NCBI GenBank assembly: GCA_963921275.4
Contig: OZ001293.3
Span: forward strand, 352,001 to 416,000
Source of the DNA: an uncultured Hormoscilla sp.
GTDB lineage: Bacteria > Cyanobacteriota > Cyanobacteriia > Cyanobacteriales > Desertifilaceae
Length of the DNA stretch: 64,000 bases
Reading direction: 5' to 3'
Both the position numbers and the translations under genes were made by a program. Position 1 is the first letter of the stretch. Each line of letters opens with the position of its first letter. Below, in pieces: positions 3,256-61,265 of the stretch. Below the pieces are notes generated by a model. The model searched no databases, had not been told where the DNA came from, and was given only the letters and a program-made list of their open reading frames with translations.

Positions 3256-3469
3256 ATGGTAAAAGTAGTACCGCCCACCAATGCAGTCGAGCGGTAGGGT
3301 GGCAATACTTCTCGGTTAAGCATGGCGGCAGGTACATTGTCATTGCGAGGGGGGGGTACGTAGCGATAACTTATGCTCAATTGAGGTAATGGTGCTTACA
3401 TCTTGCGCCGATCGCCATAACCCTTGGCGGGCCATGAGGCTAATCTCCAATGGCGCAAGTGCGATCGGC

Positions 3470-4093
3470 CTATGGAAACAAGTCGCGGACCCTCAAGGAA
3501 CCCACAGTCCGATCGCCGATCGCCACCTCAACTGCATCGGATAGGCTATAATATTGGCGCTGCTGATAAAGTGGCCCTGACGGAAGCTCAACCGGTTGGG
3601 AATAAACTTCAAGTTGCCTTTCCACAAGATTAACAATCCAATAAACCGGTATTCCCGCCCGCCCATAGAGGCGTTGTTTCAAAGTGCGATCGCGTTCCAG
3701 GGTAGAGTCAGCAACTTCCACCACTAAACTTAAGTCTCGCGCACCTGGATGGCGATCGAGATAATCGCGGGTATCGCCTCGCACGACCACAATATCTGGT
3801 TCCGGCTCGCTATCATCTAGTGTAATGGGTTCTTGCGAGTCTACGTACCAGCCGTCAGGTGCGATCGCTTCCAGAGCATTTCGAGTTAGCTTAGTAGCAG
3901 CGCGATGTTGAGGATTTTTGGGCATTTTCTGAATTAACCAACCTTCCAGCAGTTCGATCGCATCATCGGAGTCGAGGATACCCGATCGAATCATTTGGTG
4001 ATACTGCTCGACCGTCAAGCGCCAAACAGGTTCAGTGGGTACAGCCAGAGGTTGGCTCTTAATTTGCCGATCTGTTTTAGTAGAGACAGACAA
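3470..4093 (-). CDS. Uma2 family endonuclease
   Basis: ELLEGW, EPEPD, LVVEVADSTL, YWIVNL motifs. Confidence 0.9.
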   Translation of the reverse strand: MSVSTKTDRQIKSQPLAVPTEPVWRLTVEQYHQMIRSGILDSDDAIELLEGWLIQKMPKNPQHRAATKLTRNALEAIAPDGWYVDSQEPITLDDSEPEPDIVVVRGDTRDYLDRHPGARDLSLVVEVADSTLERDRTLKQRLYGRAGIPVYWIVNLVERQLEVYSQPVELPSGPLYQQRQYYSLSDAVEVAIGDRTVGSLRVRDLFP

Positions 4094-5223: not shown

Positions 5224-5515
5224 TCACAGCAACACCGCCTCTTGCAATACCCGATCGCGGATGCTAGTTTTCAAACCATTTTCGGTCACCACATCCACAT
5301 TTATCCCCAGCAAGCTTTCCAACTCACGAATTAATCGTACTGGAAACCAAGGACTGAGATTTTCCCCTAAATATATCAAAAAATTAATACGCTTCGCTGC
5401 TATCTGCATCAGCTTCTCCCCTAGCTACCGAACCAAAAACCCGCACAAGCGCCATGTTTCGCCGCTATTTGCAGGATCTTTCTCGCTTTTCTTTCTGCAG
5501 TTACTCAATACCCAT
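5224..5515 (-). pseudogene. MNT-family minimal nucleotidyltransferase (antitoxin), degraded
   Basis: MGIE* early stop and frameshifts; C-terminus LESLLGINVDVVTENGLKTSIRDRVLQEAVLL is typical. Confidence 0.75.
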
Positions 5516-5716
5516 CGCCCGATCGCCTCTATCAACCCATTTTGACTACATCATCCATCTTAGCACAGAACCCAAGATTTCGGCAAGCGCTCGAGAATTA
5601 TTCATACCCAGAAACCCGGTTTCTCCAAGAAACGGGTTTCTTAGACTTGATAATAGACATCCAGGTTAGCTATAATCTACAATAGAAGCGATAGTTCAGA
5701 TAGTGAAGAGGTCGAG

Positions 5717-6357: not shown

Positions 6358-7360
6358 ACGTGAGTTCGACGGACTGGACAAAAGCGAAAGAAAGGCGGAG
6401 ACTGGGTTTGAAGGATTTTCGTCTCTGCCACCATGAGTCAAATTGTATCGCGCCTGGACATCACCAGCATCTTCTGCGATGTAGACGACTTCTGTCAGTT
6501 TTTCGAGCGCCAGTGGAAACAGCAGCCCCAGTTGCCCTCTATGCCAGGGGAACGGCGATTTCGTTCCCGTATGAGTCTATCAGAAATCATGACGATCGCG
6601 ATCGCCTTCCATGGCTCGGGTTTTCGCATTTTCAAGGAGTTCTACACTTTGTGTGTACTCCCCCATTGGCACAAAGCCTTCCCCAATTTGGTCAGCTACA
6701 CACGCTTTGTCGAGTTGATGCCCTGGTGTTTGATGCTATTGTGTTGCTTCCTTCACACCCGAAAAGGGGAAGTAACTGGTATTTCTTTTGTCGATTCTAT
6801 TCCGATAGAAGTCTGTAGCCTTTGTTGTGCCCGGGGTCACATGGTTTTTGAGGGACTGGCTCATTGGGGGAAAACTCGGTGGGTTGGCTCTTTGGATTCA
6901 AGTTGCTCCTGGTTATCAATGCTCGAGGAGAACTGTTGGCTTTCAAACTGACTCCCGGGAATATTGACGATCGGAAACTTGTACCAGACATGGCTCAAGA
7001 TTTGTTTGGTAAGTTGTTTGGCGATCGAGGGTATGTCTCTTAAAAACTATTCGAGGGGTTGTACGAGTAAGGTTTTCAATTGATTACCAAATATAAACGA
7101 AAGATGAAAAACGGCTTTGTTAAGATGGTGGACAAAATTTTCCTCCGGAAGCGAGCCTTGATTTCATCGGTCAACGACCAACTCAAGAACATCTGTCAAA
7201 TCGAACATTCTCGCTATCGTAGCGTGTTCAACTTCCTGGTCAACCTGCTGGCCGGGTTGGTGGCTTACACCTACGCTGATCAAAAACCTCGCCTCGTTCT
7301 GGAGTTCAAAGGCTTACTAGCACTGCCTCCTGCTTTCTTCTAGTTTCGTCGAACTCACGT
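6358..7360 (+). mobile_element. IS982-family insertion sequence with a disrupted transposase (6433-7343)
   Basis: TIRs ACGTGAGTTCGACG / CGTCGAACTCACGT; 7-bp TSD TTAGTTA; IFCDVDDFC, DS and GDRGY motifs; frameshift and stops. Confidence 0.9.
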
Positions 7361-9088: not shown

Positions 9089-11236
<2,148 letters not shown>

Positions 11237-17433: not shown

Positions 17434-19314
17434 AGCTGGAGTCGAGCCCATAATCACCTCCCAACCCTCCCTTTCGGAAACATGCATGCAACTCTCACCG
17501 CACACAGCTACCGAGTAGATAGCCCTTGTCCTAAGTAGAATTACTCAGGATTACCCCCCTCATTCCTTTCCTCATGCAATTTCACCCCTTATGGTTAGTC
17601 TCAGACTACATATATGCCCAACCCCGGAAAATTCGCGGGGGATAACAGAACCAACCCATATCATCCGCTCCTTACCAACATTTACCTAACTTATCAGGTT
17701 CTCCAAGTCTTACCCAGTCAAATCTTTAGCCCAACATTCATTACCTAGGATTTCACCTGGACTATAACATTAAAGTTACCTTCACCCCAAGACTCTATCC
17801 ATCACCGACCCACGTCAGCATATCCATAGGAGTTACCCCAGGCGTTCGCCTCTTGGGCCATCTCTCATCTCATAGCCCGCACCTTACATCTAACCCGTCC
17901 AAACAAAAACAGCCCATAAAAAATTACCTCGTTCCCCGATCTCATCTCACGATATCCTTAGACCCTCACCTTACCCCCGCAACTCTTCAAGCACAATAGT
18001 CAAAATCCACAACCAACACTAACCACCTTCCCCTTTTGAGCCAGCACATAAAACCTTACTTCGCTGGTTCTACATTACGAAGCTTACACGAGTTTGTTTC
18101 CTCTGATCTTAGACATCTTTCCTAGCGGCGTCACTGACTTAGGCTATCAGCTACCCTACATTTAAGTCCTCGCTTAGCACCGCGACGATTTGGCTCCGCA
18201 GCACCTCACGCGGTTACCCCATACCTAAGAAAAAGTCGGGGTCGAGCTGTCCCTCGCGGGACAACCCTCCCTTTCGGAACCGTGCATGCGACTTTCACCG
18301 CACACGGCTACTGGGTACTAGGCCCCTTTCACGGGTAGGATTACTAGGGATTACTCCCATTATCCCTTACTACTTGCACGTCCGCCCCTTTCCTGGTTGG
18401 TGAGTGGAGCTGCCGGATAACCTTTAGTATCACCATTTAACACTCCGTTTTACCAGTTAAACATTCCTCAATCCTCAACTCGCTTTCGCTAACGCTGTAA
18501 ATGGGCTTATGACATTTTAGAGCTACTTGTACCAATAGTTTACTAGTATCACCGACCCGCGTCTGCGTATCCATAGGCATTACCGGCGTCTTCCGCATGC
18601 TCTTGTCCTGAAGGACTTTGGCGTCTTCCGCACACTCTTGTCCTGAAGGACTCGGTGTGCTCCAGACACCAAGGCATGCTCCAGACACCGCCTAGGCATT
18701 AGCTTCTCGGGCCATCTCTCCCCTCATGGGCATGCGCTATGCGCTGCGCGCACGCTACGCGGACGCACATCTGACTTGTCCAAATGAGGACAGCACCACG
18801 AGGGTTACTTCGTTCCTCTCGCTGAGGTTACTTCGTTCCCTGATATCATTTCACGATGCCTTTAGGCCCCTACTTTTCCCCGGCAGTTATTTGGGTACAA
18901 TGTTAGCCAATTCCCTAATTAACACTAACTGCATTAACTTTTGTTCCAGCGCATTAAGCCTTATTTCGCTGGTTGAGTTTAACGAGGTTTACATAGGTTC
19001 GCTTGTTCTAGCCATGGACATCTTTCCTAGCAGAGTCACCGGCTTGGGCTGCCAGTTATCCTACATTTGAGTCCTCGCTTGGCACCACGATGATGTTACT
19101 TCGCAGCACCTCACGCGGTTATCCCTGTACCTGGGGAGGGGGAATTAAACCCCCATGATTACCAGAGTTCCTAGTTTCCTAGGCCAGCGTTCCGTATATG
19201 ACTACGTTAGGCTGGAACTCATCGCACGGGAATTTAACCCCATGAGTACCAGAGTTCCTAGTTTCCTAGGCTAGCGTTCCGTATTTGACCACGTTAGGCT
19301 AGAACTCATCGCAC
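17434..19314 (-). mobile_element. ORF-less group II intron D (degraded), antisense in the RND gene; hosts intron E
   Basis: 5' GTGCGATGAGTTC at 19314; DV/DVI at 17434-17510; EBS2 UGUAG pairs with exon CUACA. Confidence 0.88.
18234..19227 (-). mobile_element. ORF-less group II intron E, nested in the same orientation in D
   Basis: 5' GTGCGATGAG, 3' CGACCCCGACT; EBS1 GGGAAUU is perfectly complementary to 5' exon AAUUCCC. Confidence 0.92.
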
Positions 19315-46800: not shown

Positions 46801-48118
46801 CCAAATTATCTGTAGAATAGATGTGCCTGATCCCACTTTTTTGAGGGTTTTCTGAGACTTTAATCGTCACAGGTGAAGCCACAGTTCCGCCGTCAGGAGT
46901 AACCCCAACAAATCCTCCCTGGGAATAGCCAAAATAAATGTCATCTAGATTTTGTGCTAAAGCAAAGACGCGGTATTGTTGCCATAAGTGACGCTCTATA
47001 TCTCTGCCCTCTTGTATATCTAACAAACCGATTCGGATCGCCTCAGCGGTGCTTTGATTGAGTGCAATTGGTTTTGCCAAATAATCAGTCAGGTGTTGCT
47101 CGATGCGAGCCGTTATTTCCCTACGCAACTGATTAGGGGTCGAGCTGGGAATCGCTTCGGAACCCTCCCGTTCGGAACCTAAAGAGCGACTTTCACCGCA
47201 TCCGGCTACTGGGTAGTAGGCCCAAGTCATTGGTAGGTAACTTTTGGATTACTCCCTTTGTCCCTTATCTCATGCAATTTCGCTCCTTTCCTGGTTGGTG
47301 AGTGGCCGGAAAACCTTTAGTATCACCATTATCGCGTCCGTTTTACCAGTAATCTATTCCTCAATCACCGAAGTGACGGGCTTATAACGTATCTAGAGTT
47401 ACTTTCACCTGAGACTTCCTACTATCACCCACCCTCACCGCACGTCGGCGTATCCTAAGCATTACCCCAGGCATTTGCTTCTTGGGGGCAGGCTTGGGCT
47501 CCCACTCGTGGCTTACGCTTCACATCTGACTGGTCCAGTTGGACAGCTCACGAGGGGTTACTTCGTCCCCTGGTCTCCGGAGCGCGATGCCTTTAGGTCC
47601 CTACTCTACCCCGGTAGTTCTTTGAGTACGATGTTAGCCAACAACAAAGACTAACACTAATTACGGTGACTTTTGTCTCCGGCGCATAAAGCCTTATTTC
47701 GCCGGTTTGAGGTAACGAGGCTTCTATAGGTTTGCTTGATCTAACCTTGGACATCATCGAGCGCGGAGTCGCCAAGGCTGCCAGCTATCCTACATTTAAG
47801 TTCTCGCTTAGCACCACGATGATGTTACTTCGCAACACCTCCAACCGGTGTTACCCCCGTACTTGGGGAGGCGGAATTTAACCCCCATGAATACCAGAGT
47901 TCCTAGTTTCCTAGGCTAGCGTTCCGCGTTTGAACAGGTTAGACTAGAACGAATCGCACGGTGGTAACCTCATTGACAGCTTTCTGTCCGTTGCGTAAGG
48001 AAAGATAGCCTGTCAATCCTACCGCTGCGCAGATTTGCAGCACAAAGGGGACGATGAAGACGGTTCGCAGCCCGACAGTTCCAGAAAGTTTGTCAACTAG
48101 ACGGTTGAGAGTTTTCAT
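43891..48118 (-). pseudogene. Cache-HAMP-HK-REC-HK hybrid sensor kinase with a sense intron and frameshifts
   Basis: Paralog of the 11297 gene; splicing 47959-47132 gives AVNEVTT|QLRREIT; further frameshifts near 46425, 45950 and 45595. Confidence 0.88.
47132..47959 (-). mobile_element. ORF-less group II intron F, sense and phase 0 in the sensor kinase gene; DV degenerate
   Basis: 5' GTGCGATTCGTT, 3' CGACCCCTAAT; EBS2 CCUCA pairs with exon UGAGG. Confidence 0.92.
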
Positions 48119-50462: not shown

Positions 50463-51297
<835 letters not shown>

Positions 51298-51897: not shown

Positions 51898-53671
51898 ATG
51901 AGCACGATGTCAAAATCGATGAATGAATGGAAGGATATCCCCTGGCCTCGGCTGGAACGGGTAGTCTTTAAGTTGCAAAAACGAATTTACAGAGCGGCAC
52001 AAGAAGGCAATAAGCAAAAAGTTCGCAGGCTCCAAAGGTTACTGGTAAGCTCCCGGGCTGCCAAATGTCTAGCGGTACGACGGGTTACACAAGATAACCA
52101 GGGAAAGAAGACAGCCGGTGTGGATGGTGTGAAATCACTAACCCCAAAGCAACGCCGAGAACTGGTAGGACAGATTGAAATCTCAAACAAGGCTAAGCCT
52201 ACACGTCGTGTATGGATTCCTAAGCCAGGGAGAGAAGAAAAACGTCCTTTAGGAATACCCACGATGCACGACCGCGCGAATCAAGGGCTCCTCAAGATTG
52301 CGCTTGAACCCGAATGGGAAGCATATATGGAGGGGAACTCATACGGATTCAGACCGGGTCGGGGATGCCACGATGCAATTGCGGCAATATTCAGCAGCAT
52401 TAAACAGAAACCCAAATGGGTATTAGATGCAGATATTGCGAAATGTTTCGACAGGATAGACCACAAAGCGCTAGTCGAAAAATTAAATACTACGTCACCA
52501 ATCCGTAAACAAGTACGGGCATGGTTAAAAGCCGGGGTGATTGACAAGAAGATATGGCACACAACTGAGGCAGGAACGCCACAAGGGGGTGTCATATCCC
52601 CACTGCTAGCCAATATAGCCCTACAGGGGTTAGAGGAAGCAGTAATGGAATTAGCAAAGACACAAAGGGAAAAGCGAAAGCTGACGGTAGTCAGATACGC
52701 AGACGACTTTGTGATCATGCATGAAGACAGGGAGATGATAGACAGAGCGCAAACAGTGGTGGCAGAGTGGCTAAGAAGAATAGGGCTTGAGTTGAAGGCC
52801 CGAAAAGACAAAGATAGCCCACAGGCTAAATGGAGAAAACCCGGGATTCGACTTCCTAGGATTCAACATAAGGCAATATAAAGAGGGAAAATACAGAACC
52901 GGCAAATCAACAAACGGAACACCCCTAGGATTCAAAACCCTAATCAAACCCAGTAATAAGTCCATAGGGAAGCATAAAGAACGGTTATCAGAAATGGTAA
53001 CTAGCCATATAACAGCACCACAAGCGGCCCTAATAAGCAGGCTAAACCCGATAATAAGGGGATGGTCAAACTACTTTAGGACAGTGGTAAGCAAGGAAAT
53101 TTACAGCGATATGGACAACTACCTATGGAACATCCTATGGCAATGGGCCAAAAGGAGGCACCCTAACAAGTCAAGTAACTGGATAACCTATAAATACTGG
53201 TCTGTAAACCAGGATGCTAAATGGCGATTCCGAAGCAAGACAAAAGAGGGTGATATGAAGATACGTAAACACTCCGAAACTGAGATAATCAGACACGTAA
53301 AAGTGAAAGGGACCGCAAGCCCATACGACGGGAACCTCACATATTGGAGCACAAGATTAGGCAAAAGCCCCGAACTGAGTAAAAGGGTAGCAACGCTACT
53401 CAAGCAGCAAAAGGGAAAATGCCAACAGTGCGGACTAACGTTTATGGATAGTGACAAATGGGAAGTTGACCATATCATGCCCCTTTCACTAGGAGGTAAG
53501 GACCGGTATGACAACCTACAGTTGCTACACAAACACTGCCACGACAAAAAGACTGCCAGCGATGGCAGTAGCCGTACCCATGACAAGGGTGGCGTGACCG
53601 AGGAGCAGGATGAGGCGAAAGTCTCATGTCCGGTTTTGAAGACGAGTCGGTCCGGTGACGGACTGGCTTAG
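51898..53671 (+). pseudogene. ltrA: Group II intron RT/maturase/HNH endonuclease with a single frameshift near 52797
   Basis: RPLGIP, SYGFRPGR, GTPQGG, RYADD; after the shift GFDFLG, LNPIIRGWSNYF, CQQC...DH...GG...NL..LH..CH. Confidence 0.92.
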
Positions 53672-56159: not shown

Positions 56160-57356
56160 GTGAAATTAGGAGTATTTTGGCGACAGATAGGTCAACCAAT
56201 GGTATATTATCCTCAGGTGGCTAAAGTTACTGGTGGGGTAACTGCTGCCGTGTTTTTCTGTCAACTGTGTCAGAGTCATTCCTCGGGTAATTCTCAAGAA
56301 TGGATATCCATTACTGTCGAGCAAATGGAGGCGGAAACCGGTTTGAATTCTTCGGAACAAGATCTGGCACGCCGCCAACTTAAGGCCCGATCGCTCTTGA
56401 AAGAGAAAATAGTTAGCGGGAAAAGTGGGGCCCTGGAGTTTTGGCCGGACCTGGAGGTCCTAGAAAAAAGATTAGAGGATAATTTGATTACACCAGAGGA
56501 ATCTCAAGCATCTCTAATTCAGGTTCAAGATAAAACTCCCAGAACAATTAAAGAAGATAAATATTTCCCGGTGCGACGTCAAGCTATTGCCGTGCAAGTC
56601 ACTCCGAATTATCAATTTAGCGGTCCCTGGAAGTCTCCTGCTGAATTAGAGGAATTTCAACGGACTTTATTAGAGTATGCTAAGATCCAAGGGTATCCTA
56701 ACCCTTCGGGATGGGTTTTTAAGGTGATCGATGGCATGACTAAAGGGTTATTGTCTCCCTTTTGGGATGAATTTGTCGCCGGAATAGCTTTAGGTGAAAG
56801 TCAGAAAGTTAAGCGGGACTGGGAGATAGAACCTGGTGTTCCTTATCCCGCCTTTGAAGAAGAACGCATTCAATATTACGTTAGCAAAGGAGAACCCCTA
56901 GAAGCAGCAGTCTCTAAAGCCAGTCACGATCTCAGAAACCCCGTTATGGGACAAGATTTGTGGTCCGGGTTCCTCCGCAAGTGCGATCGCATCGCTGAGG
57001 AGGCGTTAGCTGCGAAGAAAATGGGCGTGCAGACCCCCTATCTGCCCTCTTCCTTTACGGAGAGACCGGAAATTACTAAGGAAAGTGTCATGCAGAAGCT
57101 AGCAGCAGTTAATCCGCAATTTTCCCTGGAAGCATCTCCTTCCGACTCCCTGAACGAACTAATTTTAGCAGCGGTGGATAAATCAGCAGAACAGAAAGAA
57201 CAGAAACCAGCATCCGATGTTCCGCCTCTTGCTACTTTGCAGGAGATGTTTAAAACTGCGATCGGGCGATCGCTGGTGAAAAAGCAAATTGCCGAACACC
57301 CGGAATGGGGATATGAAATAGTTGACGGGAACGTGGTAGACTCAATTCCTTTTTAG
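56160..57356 (+). CDS. Hypothetical protein with an N-terminal winged-helix-like segment
   Basis: Long ORF; ETGL...EQ..AR..L motif. Confidence 0.6.
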   Translation: MKLGVFWRQIGQPMVYYPQVAKVTGGVTAAVFFCQLCQSHSSGNSQEWISITVEQMEAETGLNSSEQDLARRQLKARSLLKEKIVSGKSGALEFWPDLEVLEKRLEDNLITPEESQASLIQVQDKTPRTIKEDKYFPVRRQAIAVQVTPNYQFSGPWKSPAELEEFQRTLLEYAKIQGYPNPSGWVFKVIDGMTKGLLSPFWDEFVAGIALGESQKVKRDWEIEPGVPYPAFEEERIQYYVSKGEPLEAAVSKASHDLRNPVMGQDLWSGFLRKCDRIAEEALAAKKMGVQTPYLPSSFTERPEITKESVMQKLAAVNPQFSLEASPSDSLNELILAAVDKSAEQKEQKPASDVPPLATLQEMFKTAIGRSLVKKQIAEHPEWGYEIVDGNVVDSIPF

Positions 57357-57366
57357 AGGGAGAAAC

Positions 57367-57603
57367 ATGAGAAAAGTTAAAGATATTGATGGCTTTAGTT
57401 CCGCCGGACGTCCTCTTCTGTCAGCAAAAGAATGTCAAAAACTGCGTCAGGAGAAAATTCAGCAACAGCAAGAGTCAAACTATCAACTGTTGGCAGAACT
57501 TTGTCGCTTAGGGGAGGAGGACGCTGCCAAGCTACTGACAAACCGCAATTATAGCTGGGGTTATGAAGTAGTTGACGGAGTGGTCAGGGAAAGGTTAGAT
57601 TAA
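57367..57603 (+). CDS. Small hypothetical protein
   Basis: RBS-like GGGAG upstream; shares WGYE.VDG.V with the C-terminus of the upstream protein. Confidence 0.55.
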   Translation: MRKVKDIDGFSSAGRPLLSAKECQKLRQEKIQQQQESNYQLLAELCRLGEEDAAKLLTNRNYSWGYEVVDGVVRERLD

Positions 57604-57782
57604 TTGCAAATTGGGAATTGAGAATGGCGAATTATTTGATGGCAAGTGGGGGCGATGATTGGAAAATTTTTGGCGATCGCATGTGGTTGGTGTACGCAGG
57701 ACATTGGCGTAAGCATGTGGCCGGGGCACAAATCAGTAATATAATAATATGAACCGAAAGATCTCTGATGCCGTGCCCCTTG

Positions 57783-57788
57783 TATACT
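57783..57788 (+). promoter_or_regulatory. -10 half (TATACT) of the IS110 circle-junction promoter; -35 TTGACA at 60159-60164
   Basis: The circular junction reads TTGACA-18 nt-TATACT. Confidence 0.75.
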
Positions 57789-57794
57789 AAGATT

Positions 57795-58851
57795 AGTCTG
57801 GTGGAGTGCGATTCGTTCTAGTCTAACGTAGTCAAACACGGAACGCTAGCCTAAGAAATTAGGAACTCTGGTAATCATGGGGGTTCAATTCCCCCTCCCC
57901 AGGTACGGGGGTCGAGGGTACTACCGGTCGGAGGTGCTACGGAGCGACATCGCCGTGGTGCCTCCCGAGGACTTAAATGTAGGATAACTGGCAGCCTAAG
58001 CCGGTGACGCCGCTAGGAAAGATGCTAATGGTTAGAACAAGCGAACCTATGTAAACCTCGTTAACTAGAACCAGCGGAATAAGGCTTATGCGCTTGCCCA
58101 AAAAAAGGGAAATGGTAGTTAGTATTAGCTCTTCTATCTGGCTAATAACGTACTCAAAGAACTCCCGGGGTATAGTAGGAACCTAAAAGCATCGTGAAAT
58201 GATACTAGGGAACGAAGTAACCCATCGTGTGCTGTCTACCGAGACCAGTCAGATGTGAAGCGCAAGCTACGGTGGGAGGGATGGCCCAAGAAGCAAAAGC
58301 CCTAATTAATGCCTGGGATAAGCAAACAGGGGTCGGTGACAGTAGGAAATCTCGGGCTAAAGTAACCCTAATACGCCCCAATACCTAGCATGCGAAGGTG
58401 GGATAACTGGTGAAACGGACTCAGATAAATTGGTAATACTAAAGGTTATCCGGCAGCGCCACTTACCAACCAGGAAAGGGGAGAAATTACATGAGATGAG
58501 GGACAACGGGAGTAATCCCCAGTAATCCTACCAATGACAAGGCCCTACTGCCCAGTAGCCGGGTGCGGTGAAAGTCGCAAGCCCGGTTCCGCTCTTGGAG
58601 GGTTGGGGAGTGATTCCCAGCTCGACCCCGACCAGAGCACTCAAACACTCTCTCTACTTCGGTCAGGTGAAGCTGGCGTGCCCCTAAGACACCTTAAGGC
58701 TAAGTCTGTTGTGTAGATTAGCTCCCTGCAGGTGAATCACGACTGGTTTGATCCTGATACTGTCCAGTATCTTAGGCCACCCACGCTTTGTTGAGCCTGC
58801 TAAACCGCGGTTAGTTGCATTGACCAGTCAGCATACAATTTGTATGCTATC
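57795..58851 (+). ncRNA. IS110 bridge RNA locus (exonic parts ~57795-57805 and 58634-58851)
   Basis: Target guides CGTGCCCCT (58677-85) and TGTAG (58712-16) match the empty site CGTGCCCCTACA; donor guide CAGTATCT (58765-72) matches the right end. Confidence 0.8.
57806..58633 (+). mobile_element. ORF-less group II intron J inside the bridge-RNA 5' region
   Basis: GTGCG...CGACCCCGACC; intact-looking DV; EBS1 UCUAUCU/exon UGGUGGA; EBS2 ACUAG/exon UUAGU. Confidence 0.93.
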
Positions 58852-59686
58852 GTGCGATTCGTTCGGACGTAAACCAGTAATGGTGAAAGTCTGATCTGGT
58901 TCAGTAAGCCAGATAACTCTGGTCATCATAGGGGTTAAATTCCCCTCCCTCAGGTACGGGGGTGACACCGGTCGGAGGTGCTGCGGAGTAACATCACCGT
59001 GGTGCTGAGCGAGGACTTAAATGTAGGATAGCTGGCAGCCACAGCTGGCAACTCCGCTTGTTAGAGGCTCATGGTTAGAATAAGCGAATCTCTGTAAGTA
59101 TCGTTAACGCAAACCAGCGAAAGGGCTGTTACGCTGGCCCAAAATGGGAAAGCAGTTAGTATCAATGTTGGTATCTCATTGGTATCGTACTCGAAGAACT
59201 GCCGGTATAGAGGAGAGACCTAAAAGCCTCGTGAAATGATATCAGGGAACGAAGTAACCCCACGTGAGCTGTCCAGTAGGACCAGTGAGATGTGAAGCGC
59301 AAGCCACGTGTGGGAGAGATGGCCCAAGAAGCTAATGCCTAGGGTAATGCCTATGGATATGCAGACGTGGGTCGGTGATGTCAGGAAACTACTGGAATAA
59401 GTAGCCTTAAAACGTCATAGGCCCATTCACAGCGTTAGCTAAAGTGAGTTGAGGAATGTATTACTGGTAAAACGGATATGTAAATGGTGATACTAAAGGT
59501 TTTCCGGCGGCGCCACTCACCAACCAGGAAAGGGGCAAACATGTAAGTAGTAAGGGACAACGGGAGTAATCCAAAAGTTACCTACCATGAAAAAGGGCCT
59601 GGCACCCAGTAGCCGTGTGCGATGAAAGTCGCATGCACGGTTTCGAAAGGGAGGGTTGGTACGCGAGTACCAGCTCGACCCCGGCT
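58852..59686 (+). mobile_element. ORF-less group II intron K between the bridge RNA and the transposase
   Basis: GTGCGATTCGTT...CGACCCCGGCT; intact-looking DV; EBS1 GGUAUCU/exon UGCUAUC. Confidence 0.93.
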
Positions 59687-59721
59687 CACTTAAAATTGAG
59701 TTAAAATTGAGGTACAGTGCT

Positions 59722-60162
59722 ATGACACAAACAGTTCTAGGCATCGACAGAGCGCAAAAAGACATTTCATGTCGCTCTGATGCTTGAGAACGGCAAAACT
59801 CTCACCAAAACACTTCTACAACGACGACAAAGGGTTCAGCCAGCTGAGCACCTGGCTAGAGAGACATGAGGTAACGACAGTCCATGCTTGTATGGAAGCC
59901 AGAGCGCATCTATGGCGAAGCATTGGCAGAATATTTGTACTCTGCTGGTCATATTGTTAGTATCGTGAATCCCGTTCGCATTAAAGCTTTTGCGCTCCGA
60001 CATAATTCTTTGCTCAAAGCGTTCAGCGACCGATTGCTGAATCGCGGTAAGGTAAAGATGCAGGTGATTGGAGCGGTGATGCGCAAGTTGTTACATATGG
60101 CTTTTGGAATATTAAAGTCCCAAAAGCCCTTCGATCCGAATTTTTTATCGGCAACCCCTTGA
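59722..60162 (+). pseudogene. IS110 recombinase, frameshifted and internally deleted
   Basis: MTQTVLGID...HACMEA...YGEALAEYL...VNPVRIKAFA joined to RGKVKMQVIGAVMRKLLH...KPFDP. Confidence 0.88.
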
Positions 60163-60180
60163 CAGTTCGACACAGTATCT

Positions 60181-61265
60181 ACATTTAATTGGCGCTCGCC
60201 ACCCGATGCGAGCGCATCGGGGTCGGGGCACAGATAATATTGGCGATCCCATGTGGCCGGGGCACAGATAACATTGGGGATCGGATCTCTTCCCTGACAT
60301 CTATGGTAGGGGTACGGAAGAAATTTATCAGGATATAAACTAAAAGATATCTATTGCCGTGTCCCAGCCCTAAATTTGCGATCTCCTCCTGACATTTGAT
60401 TGACATTATATTCGCGATCGGGCATCGGGTGGCGAGCGCATCGGGCCGGGGCACGGCGTATTTATCATAATAATATGAACCGAAAGATATCGGATGCCGT
60501 GCCTCTACGGAACATTGGCGATCGGATGCAGACAGAACATTGGCGAGCGCATGTTGTCGGGGCACAGATAATATTGGCGAGCGCGTGAGACCGGGGCACG
60601 GCGTTTTAAACATTTTCATTATTAGGGAAAATTTTCGGATACGCTGGCGCTGTGCTCCTACAGGAAATTGGCGATCTCGCATCAGGGGGCGAGCGCATGT
60701 GTTCGGGGCACAGATAATATTGGCGAGCGCATGTGTTCGGGGCACAGATAATATTGGCGATCTAATTTATTTCCTGACCAGCATTGTAGGGGCATGGCAT
60801 CGATAAATTAGGATAGAAACTGAAAGATATATATCACCGTGCCCCGGCCCCACGAATGAGTGACATTTAATTGGCGATCAGGCATTGAGGGGCCATCGCA
60901 TGTTGTCGGGGTACAGATAATATTGGCCATCGTAAGCTGTGATGCATCTAAATTGCATATTTCCCTATCAGGTTAAATCGTGGCAACCCTGTATACATAA
61001 GCGTTTCCGCCATAATGGCCAACGCATGACTATGCATTTTAAATGCGCGACAGCTTATGTTGTCGGGGCACAGATAATATTGGTGATCGCATGTGGTCGG
61101 TGTACGCAGGACATTGGCGATCGCATGTGGCCGGGGCACTGCGGATTTAATATCATAATATGAACCGATAATCTGCGCTATGCCGTACACCTACAGTTCA
61201 TATGAGATCGCATCCAGACATAATATTGGCGATCGCATATGAACGTTGACATTATATTCGCGATC
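60181..61265 (+). repeat. Degenerate array of ~33-bp units (GGCGA(T/G)CGCATGT..CGGGGCACAGATAATATT) mixed with GTAG REP halves
   Basis: More than 10 visible units; the same family occurs at 57670-57780 and 63895-64000. Confidence 0.8.

Follow-up and report, generated by a model that had tools for sequence, protein, structure and literature searches.

A probable fossil IS110-family element of the IS621 type, with a readable bridge RNA and two group II introns, in a cyanobacterial genome

Can the bridge RNA of an insertion sequence still be read, and can it account for the site of insertion, once the recombinase gene has decayed? This question is raised by a locus in a 64-kb stretch of DNA, hereafter called the window, from an uncultured Hormoscilla sp. 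(GenBank assembly GCA_963921275.4, contig OZ001293.3, positions 352,001 to 416,000 of the forward strand), for which an earlier reading of the letters alone, hereafter the original prediction, had proposed an IS621-like IS110 element with a bridge RNA programmed for a cyanobacterial repetitive extragenic palindrome (REP). Our analysis makes it very likely that 57781-60180 is a fossil insertion sequence of the IS110 family, of the IS621 (bridge recombinase) type, with an ancestral working as proposed below; its anatomy, its homology and the agreement of guides with flanks among its relatives are directly observed. Coordinates are positions in the window, and the interval 57770-60190 of the original prediction takes in some flank. 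The left and right ends of the element are abbreviated as LE and RE, the left and right target guides of the bridge RNA as LTG and RTG, the left and right donor guides as LDG and RDG, and the target-binding loop as TBL.

The limits of the element are defined by the following features:
57772..57780, + strand: left half of the target with the core, CGTGCCC-CT, lying in a repeated unit and identical at 9/9 positions to the LTG at 58677-85
57781..57805, + strand: left end (exon 1), with the right donor TGTAT and the -10 box TATACT (57783-88), a start shared with relatives
60159..60180, + strand: right end, with the -35 box TTGACA and the left donor plus core ACAGTATCT, a terminus conserved in relatives
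60181..60185, + strand: right target half ACATT, placed by sequence and by alignment with paralogues

The left flank terminates with ...GATGCCGTGCCCCT at 57780 and the element opens with TGTATACT / TGTATACTAAG at 57781, whereas at the other side the element terminates with ...TTGACAGTTCGACACAGTATCT / ...CCCCTTGACAGTTCGACACAGTATCT at 60180 and the flank picks up with ACATTTAAT from 60181. A CT core thus lies on either side (57779-80 and 60179-80), and the termini, TGTAT... and ...ACAGTAT, are unrelated to each other, so that terminal inverted repeats are absent, as in elements of the IS110/IS621 type; both features would be due to strand exchange by the recombinase at the CT core. When RE and LE are joined in silico, the junction reads ACAGTATCT-TGTAT and a promoter can be recognised in the sequence, in which 18 nt separate TTGACA (60159-64, sharing bases with the stop codon) from TATACT (57783-88). 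The junction 14-mer is identical to the published IS621 donor. Among cyanobacterial relatives, 26 of 32 end in ...ACAGTATCT followed by AC, at most 80 nt from the gene, and L001 (TGTATGTT) as well as other relatives (TGTATCTT) have starts like that of this copy. The flanking CT, the junction, the promoter TTGACA-N18-TATACT and all the strings quoted in the original prediction are therefore present where it had placed them. A search of the window for a contiguous donor junction gave only chance matches with two and three mismatches, with no tandem copy and no junction.

Removal of the element restores a repeat, again as predicted: the flanks align over the junction with uninterrupted paralogues at ~60466-60525 and 61147-61211 (...ATAATATGAACCGAAAGAT.TC.GATGCCGTGCC.CTAC...ATTGGCG.TCG), the left flank 57741-80 showing 94.6% identity to 60467-60503. 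Allowing up to one mismatch, the 11-mer CGTGCCCCTAC occurs 9 times in the window (0.73 expected; one of the nine is the guide itself) and GCCGTGCCCC occurs 17 times (3.45 expected, with a maximum of 10 in 100 shuffles). The empty copies proposed at 2166 and 2307-2317 are real, since exact CGTGCCCCTAC lies at 2166-76 on the - strand and at 2307-17 on the + strand. Copies of the repeat occur in both orientations, with inverted pairs at 2165-2265, and the target lies within a ~60-nt repeated unit having inverted GCCGTGCCCC/GGGGCACGGC pairs. Over the 64 kb examined the copies are located between long predicted reading frames, and the unit is probably intergenic. What stands of the proposed REP target is thus a repeated, probably intergenic unit with inverted pairs, which the REP label fits loosely. 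A target of like kind (...TGCCGTGCCCCTAC...) accompanies a different bridge RNA in the published data set of PMC11208160.

For the bridge RNA, genome contigs were searched with a profile from an alignment of 20 relatives, and the best 80 of 562 confirmed loci were taken (L numbers). The regions upstream of the gene in 23 cyanobacterial loci were aligned with window 58650-58832, and the RNAalifold consensus of these 24 sequences was edited by hand, with a GG.G.AGCU/AGCUCCC helix added and two helices within guides removed. The covariance model built from this alignment, R1, was searched in 81 sources at E <= 0.01. It retrieves 72 bridge-RNA homologues from Cyanobacteria, Acidobacteriota, Chloroflexota and further groups, nearly all of them directly upstream of a recombinase gene; in the window it gives a single strong match at 58650-58831 (101.8 bits, E 3.9e-25). 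The LE of the window copy thus holds, upstream of the gene, a structured RNA with two internal loops of the kind that characterises this type of element, with the following parts:
58650..58831, + strand: core of the bridge RNA (TBL plus donor-binding loop), within exon 2 (58633-58851), identified with R1
58677..58685, + strand: LTG, CGUGCCCCU, in the LTG columns of the alignment and matching the left flank at 9/9
58710..58718, + strand: RTG, UGUGUAG (58710-16), followed by the handshake bases AU (58717-18), in the guide columns
58764..58772, + strand: LDG, CCAGUAUCU, agreeing at 8/9 with the right-end terminus ACAGTATCT at 60172-80
58805..58811, + strand: mutated RDG slot, CCGCG (58805-09) followed by GU, in place of the ACAAG and G(U) of the family; pairs at 2/5 with CTTGT
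58830..58848, + strand: hairpin after the donor loop, AGCAUACAA-UU-UGUAUGCU; L001 has a different hairpin, CUGCAC-UU-GUGCAG, in the same place

The consensus contains an outer target-loop helix, an inner hairpin UAGAC...GUCUG and, in the donor loop, an inner helix AGGC/GCCU with a variable stem after it, and the outer helix of the donor loop reads GACAGGC/GCCUGUC in the family and GACUGGU/ACCAGUC in the window and L001. In the edited structure 95.4% of 789 cells are paired and 7 of 33 pairs have changed on both sides; its covariation score was reached by none of 500 shuffles, and controls slid by 1-3 columns paired only 28-40% of cells. The pairing of part of the LTG with GGUG given by RNAalifold was discarded in favour of the added helix, which is unbroken in 20 of the 24 sequences; the four that break it (L005, L015, L024 and L038) have GCGGACA replacing GCUCCCA in the target-loop stem. 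The closing stem of the window copy pairs CAGG..AGCT (58664-74) with AGCT.CCTG (58720-28), and its alignment to R1 leaves every helix intact except the outermost one of the target loop. Folding of the window sequence recovers the outer stem of the donor loop (z = -3.0). The proposal that the left end would fold and align as a bridge RNA is thus borne out by the family covariance model but not by the minimum free energy fold of the spliced left end, which does not yield the family structure.

Published bridge RNAs have the 3' side of the guide loop complementary to the top strand, and donor positions 6-7 are paired with the dinucleotide that follows the RTG (PMC11208160, PMC11208158). The target loop of the window has this geometry. 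Its 5' side equals the left target plus core, the DNA form of the LTG (CGTGCCCCT at 58677-85) being identical at 9/9 positions to 57772-80. Its 3' side complements core and right target, with TGTAG at 58712-16; the complement of the RTG, CTACACA, compared with the real CT+ACATT, fits the core and 3/5 flank bases. The handshake AU is complementary to donor positions 6-7 (AT). In a consensus with compensatory changes, conserved helices enclose both LTG and RTG, which places the guides in internal loops. The complete match of the LTG to the flank goes beyond chance, given its position in the LTG columns of the family alignment, the same correspondence in relatives and the over-representation of the 11-mer.

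In the donor loop, the LDG agrees at 8/9 positions (with CAGTATCT at 58765-72 matching the donor), whereas the RDG slot pairs at only 2/5. This slot has CAAG in 58 of 70 rows (ACAAG or GCAAG, complementary to CTTGT), AUAAG in two and ACGAG in two, with one row incomplete; CCGCG is found in the window alone (1/70), where the two bases upstream of the slot, partners of donor positions 13-14, are likewise changed. It is because of this mutation that the RDG could not be seen when the sequence was originally read, and a bridge RNA with such a slot would be unable to hold the donor of this copy. The hairpin at 58830-48, which has AUACAA (6/7 for an RDG), was considered as the missing guide and rejected, since the RDG of relatives lies inside the donor-loop stem and an unrelated hairpin is present at that place. 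The mutated region 58800-58814 forms a near-perfect DNA palindrome (CTAAACCGCGGTTAG, centre CCGCGG). In six cyanobacterial rows (L003, two copies in L012, L014, L015 and L048) the slot reads ACTCT(C/T)G and not ACAAGG; the left ends of L003, L012, L014 and L048 still start with TGTATCTT despite this change, and that of L015 lies off its contig. In L011, L015, L021 and L024 the LDG has CAGGCGGUAUCU where others have GGACAGUAUCU.

Do the relatives obey the same correspondence of guide and flank? Left-end starts were located with a motif independent of the LTG, TGT[AG]T.[TC]T (nearest upstream), and right ends by the LDG of each row; guide-flank pairings were then shuffled 2000 times, with relatedness among sequences ignored. 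On the left, 70 of the 72 rows have a 9-nt LTG and 59 of these also the start motif; 32 match their flank at 9/9, 14 at 8/9, 7 at 7/9, one at 6/9 and five at three positions or fewer (two of these five are one-base register slips and the rest probably wrong motif picks). The 35 distinct pairs agree at 247 of 315 positions, where shuffled pairings average 136 and reach 171 at most. On the right, 19 of 52 rows match at 5/5, and 37 distinct pairs agree at 126 of 185 positions (shuffle mean 75, maximum 98). No shuffle among the 2000 reached the observed agreement on either side, so that the insertion sites of homologues do follow their guides, as the original prediction demands. The guides fall into many unrelated classes (such as GCTCGAATT, GTTTCACCT and ACCCAACCT), and close relatives covary with their sites: the guides CGTGCCCCT in the window, CGTGTCCCT in L001 and CCCACCCCT in L008 are each identical to the flank of the element that carries them. 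Over the 72 rows, which span several phyla, donor loop and termini are nearly invariant; sharing of the IS621 donor is therefore a family trait, and the identity of donors that had been claimed for the window copy is correct but not special to it.

Some of these relatives show peculiarities of their own. L009 and L027, which lie on one contig, have swapped specificities: L009 has the LTG CCTGCCCCT in a CCCGCCCCT site and L027 the LTG CCCGCCCCT in a CCTGCCCCT site, which suggests that they act in trans or tolerate one mismatch; in both, ~420 nt separate the stop codon from the right-end terminus. L012 contains two identical bridge RNAs in opposite orientation (3295-3464, +; 5383-5552, -), with the 3' end of the gene running into its own reverse complement, and L075 has two tandem copies 3055 nt apart (3346-3501 and 6401-6556); these duplications could be rearrangements or assembly artefacts. 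In Microcoleus-group elements a 20-nt tandem array lies between the left-end start and the bridge RNA, as in L006 (2979-3216, 11.9 copies of the unit CCGACAATCAGGCGATCGAG), with similar arrays in L004, L007, L011, L013, L016, L038 and others; because of this array, the bridge RNA of the group starts at a distance of 125-489 nt from the end, whereas in other phyla this distance is about 25-50 nt.

What remains of the recombinase gene is much less than what remains of the RNA:
59722..60162, + strand: recombinase remnant, residues 1-90 (frameshifted) followed by residues 268-323, identified by tblastn with protein P0001

Of 912 candidate proteins, 694 match the 92-codon frame at 59884-60159 with E <= 0.001; P0001, which ranks first, is 93% identical over 61% of the query (a 56-residue C-terminal stretch). 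The 120 matches listed are mostly of 323 residues, nearly all with PF01548 plus PF02371, and many come from Microcoleus. In tblastn, residues 1-90 of P0001 correspond to 59722-59994, with stops, and residues 268-323 to 59992-60159; the same search found no further recombinase copy in the window. DNA alignment reveals three single-base (+1) insertions relative to L002 and L006, one of them common to L001, and ~534 nt are absent relative to L001, a gap that takes in the SSGSS region as well as the conserved KTD..D motif. Divergence from the nearest relative is ~20%. The enzymes of this family combine an N-terminal DEDD/RuvC-like domain with a C-terminal Tnp domain bearing the catalytic serine, an arrangement that this copy no longer encodes: since only the two fragments are left and these have no Pfam match, the copy descends from a member of the family but encodes no enzyme. 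P0001 aligns with the IS621 recombinase (PDB 8wt6) without gaps over 311 residues (E 3.6e-79; 139 identities by hand count, ~45%). This alignment of the intact 323-residue relatives, together with the bridge RNA upstream of the gene, upholds the description of the element as IS621-like.

The +1 insertion shared with L001 lies near codon 13 (the 59786 region in the window, ~2215 in L001) in two different genomes; either the frameshift dates from their common ancestor, or the start of the gene is read in another way in this lineage. The string AGAGCGC recurs at 59748-59756 and 59902-59910, where relatives read A(T/C)CAGC-type codons, the second occurrence being a +1 frameshift site, and a similar CAGAGC follows intron 1 at 58633; the recurrence is possibly a coincidence.

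The rest of the element is occupied by two introns:
57806..58632, + strand: group II intron 1, without an open reading frame (ORF-less), GTGCG start; RF00029 (domains V-VI) at 58554-58632, 41.9 bits
58852..59685, + strand: ORF-less group II intron 2, GTGCG start; RF00029 at 59608-59685, 47.4 bits

Both exceed the RF00029 gathering score of 40, have the GUGYG 5' end, domain V and domain VI with its bulged A that define group II introns, and lack a long reading frame; they are 74.5% identical over 788 nt (blastn), with a mean column identity of 83% in a MAFFT alignment. L001, the nearest intron-less relative, is uninterrupted at both sites and has similar spacer lengths, which fixes the exons as 57781-57805, 58633-58851 and 59686-60180. 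Intron 1 lies ~25 nt into the left end and intron 2 lies 3 nt past the hairpin that follows the donor loop, both in sense orientation. A hairpin loop at intron nt ~315-345 behaves as exon-binding site 1 (EBS1), and the same columns fit the exons of two other copies. The EBS1 of intron 1, UCUAUC, pairs with the 5' exon GGUGGA at 6/6 positions (two G-U) and at 12/13 when extended, a fit that 8% of shuffled exons reach and that is weak alone; intron 2 pairs at 5/6 by eye with its intron-binding site (IBS1), and its 3' end is GGC, not GAC.

At least five full-length copies of this ~830-nt ORF-less family are present in the 64 kb, including 50463-51296 (+), 9409-10242 (-) and 47136-47959 (-), besides nested or fragmentary copies at 9089-11235 and 17438-19314; the family is absent from the best 80 of the 562 relative loci. 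The copy at 9409-10242 (-) is inserted in the antisense strand of a sibling intron, exactly opposite the EBS hairpin of the latter, and its 5' exon pairs at 13/13 with its own EBS region (none of 200 shuffled exons reaches 13/13); judging from these letters, an intron EBS read backwards would be a ready-made homing site. Just downstream of the copy at 50463-51296, two adjacent frames on the + strand, 51898-52881 (RVT_N+RVT_1) and 52994-53671 (GIIM+HNH), look like a group II intron-encoded protein split in two, possibly a maturase acting in trans on the ORF-less copies, or a broken one.

How might this arrangement have arisen? An active ancestor would have excised as a circle whose RE-LE junction, ACAGTATCT-TGTAT, made the sigma-70 promoter TTGACA-N18-TATACT and thereby drove the bridge RNA from the left end. 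The TBL (LTG CGUGCCCCU, RTG ..GUAG) would have paired with both strands of CGTGCCC-CT-AC in a short cyanobacterial repeat and the donor-binding loop with the junction, while the DEDD/serine recombinase swapped strands at the CT core; we infer circle formation and catalysis from the biochemistry of IS621. Later the copy lost ~177 recombinase codons, including two DEDD acidic residues and the serine region, gained frameshifts, suffered mutation of its RDG and received two sense-oriented invasions by ORF-less group II introns of a family with many copies in the window. It is now non-functional and unable to move by itself.

Several results weigh against this account. The outermost TBL helix of the family is conserved neither in the window nor in L001, and the single-sequence fold of the window target loop misses the family structure (z = +1.4). 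Among Rfam 15 families, searched over 57000-61000 with E up to 1, none matches the bridge RNA, the matches being confined to group II intron domains and a weak fragment of tmRNA, so that the RNA assignment rests on our own model and on published descriptions. The RTG fits no more than the core and 3/5 flank bases, just as the RTG of cyanobacterial relatives seldom extends its match more than one or two bases past AC; the shuffle controls take no account of relatedness; a Pfam scan of the window's own gene pieces gives no match; and within the window we saw no circle junction, no transcript and no intact sibling from the same genome. Could the resemblance then be accidental, with repeat-rich intergenic DNA, intron copies and a stray transposase fragment giving the appearance of a discrete element? 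The region is indeed crowded with short GTGCCCC-bearing repeats, which makes a 9-mer match to a flank less rare than in random DNA. This 9-mer, however, occupies precisely the LTG columns when the window is matched over 182 nt to the family model (E 3.9e-25), the ends coincide with conserved family termini and the flanks rejoin into an uninterrupted paralogous repeat. An accident is already contradicted by the R1 match, the guide-flank rule and the flank alignment, and we give it almost no credence.

The fossil element could instead be non-autonomous yet still mobile, with the recombinase and bridge RNA of an intact sibling excising and reinserting it in trans, introns included. Both termini and the junction promoter are intact, and a donor loop that is near-invariant in the family means that the RNA of a sibling would recognise its ends; yet the window contains no intact sibling, and multiple frameshifts, a mutated guide and ~20% divergence look like long neutral decay, so that we regard continued mobility as unlikely. 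We consider it even less probable, and very doubtful, that the left end still gives a useful RNA, either because the TBL serves siblings in trans after splicing or because the output of bridge RNA depends on splicing. The TBL is intact (LTG 9/9), the introns are sense-oriented, the EBS1-IBS1 pairing of intron 1 is good and a split reverse transcriptase plus maturase/HNH frame lies at 51898-53668; against this, the RNA cannot bind its donor properly with a mutated RDG slot, a transcript from the junction promoter would have an estimated ~11 nt only of 5' exon before intron 1, intron 2 ends in GGC with weaker exon pairing, and none of the 80 relative loci has the introns. It would be a long shot, too, to propose that the introns colonised the bridge-RNA unit in such a way that the guide RNA, or intron transcription from the junction promoter, depends on splicing, and, separately, that the alternative RDG slots (CCGCG here and ACTCT(C/T)G in six Microcoleus-group loci) represent a recurrent natural means by which such elements become locked in place. 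If splicing-dependent bridge RNA were true, two unrelated mobile-RNA systems would be linked.

Returning to the fossil IS621-type element as the preferred reading, the locus provides a natural example of the bridge-RNA rule outside enterobacteria, in which the guide can be read from the DNA and predicts the insertion site, and it belongs to a whole cyanobacterial clade that keeps the IS621 donor while being aimed at GCCCCT-AC repeats. For annotation, a 2.4-kb stretch without a good gene call becomes three nested mobile elements, and bridge-RNA searches at a fixed distance from the element end miss interrupted copies of this sort. The kind of element is already known and no new mechanism is involved; the introns inside the bridge-RNA transcription unit are a minor curiosity.

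ORF-less group II introns that rely on a maturase supplied in trans are known from cyanobacteria. The introns of the window resemble them in the GUGCG 5' end, domains V/VI, a length of ~830 nt without a frame, the presence of many copies and a nearby reverse transcriptase/maturase frame, but differ in sitting inside a bridge-RNA transcription unit. In literature searches judged by titles and the first lines of abstracts, no description came up of group II introns within a bridge-RNA unit or of such a case in a cyanobacterial IS110 element.

Among IS110 elements, ISPpu10 is likewise REP-targeting and is described as inserting into copies of one conserved intergenic sequence (bioRxiv 10.64898/2026.03.19.712850). 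By protein comparison, ISCro4 (PDB 9t56) belongs to the same recombinase family (E 1.4e-78). Much closer are the Microcoleus/Tychonema elements (L001-L054), which share the termini, the bridge-RNA architecture and a repeat target of the xxxGCCCCT-AC type. They differ from the window copy in their full-length gene (L001 shares one +1), mostly canonical RDG and lack of introns, and the main Microcoleus group also in its 20-nt array between LE start and bridge RNA. L001, from Microcoleus asticus IPMA8, is the nearest, being 80% identical over 702 aligned nt with the same LE layout and a bridge RNA ~40 nt from the end.

To IS621 of Escherichia coli there is no DNA similarity by blastn: the bridge-RNA exon has no match in the complete E. 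coli genomes or in the PLSDB plasmids, and the comparison therefore used the supplement of PMC11208160. This supplement gives a donor specificity of ACAGTATCTTGTAT, a CT core, a target-loop specificity of ATCGGGCCTAC, a left end that opens with TGTAT and a bridge RNA with CCUGUUGCGUAGAUUU in it, which bears out the IS621 donor, core and TBL context stated in the original prediction. Exact bridge-RNA strings of the window or of Microcoleus were not found in its readable parts, where absence means little. IS621 differs from the window copy in its target guide (AUCGGGCCU compared with CGUGCCCCU) and shows ~45% protein identity to P0001; the window copy, in turn, lies in a cyanobacterium, lacks a working recombinase, has a mutated RDG and contains two group II introns. 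The two nevertheless share the donor 14-mer, the CT core, a promoter split between RE (-35) and LE (-10), a bridge RNA that precedes the gene, has LTG/RTG and LDG/RDG in its two internal loops and carries the handshake AU after the RTG, a target that is a short genomic repeat and, in close relatives of the window copy, a recombinase that aligns with that of IS621 gap-free over 311 residues.

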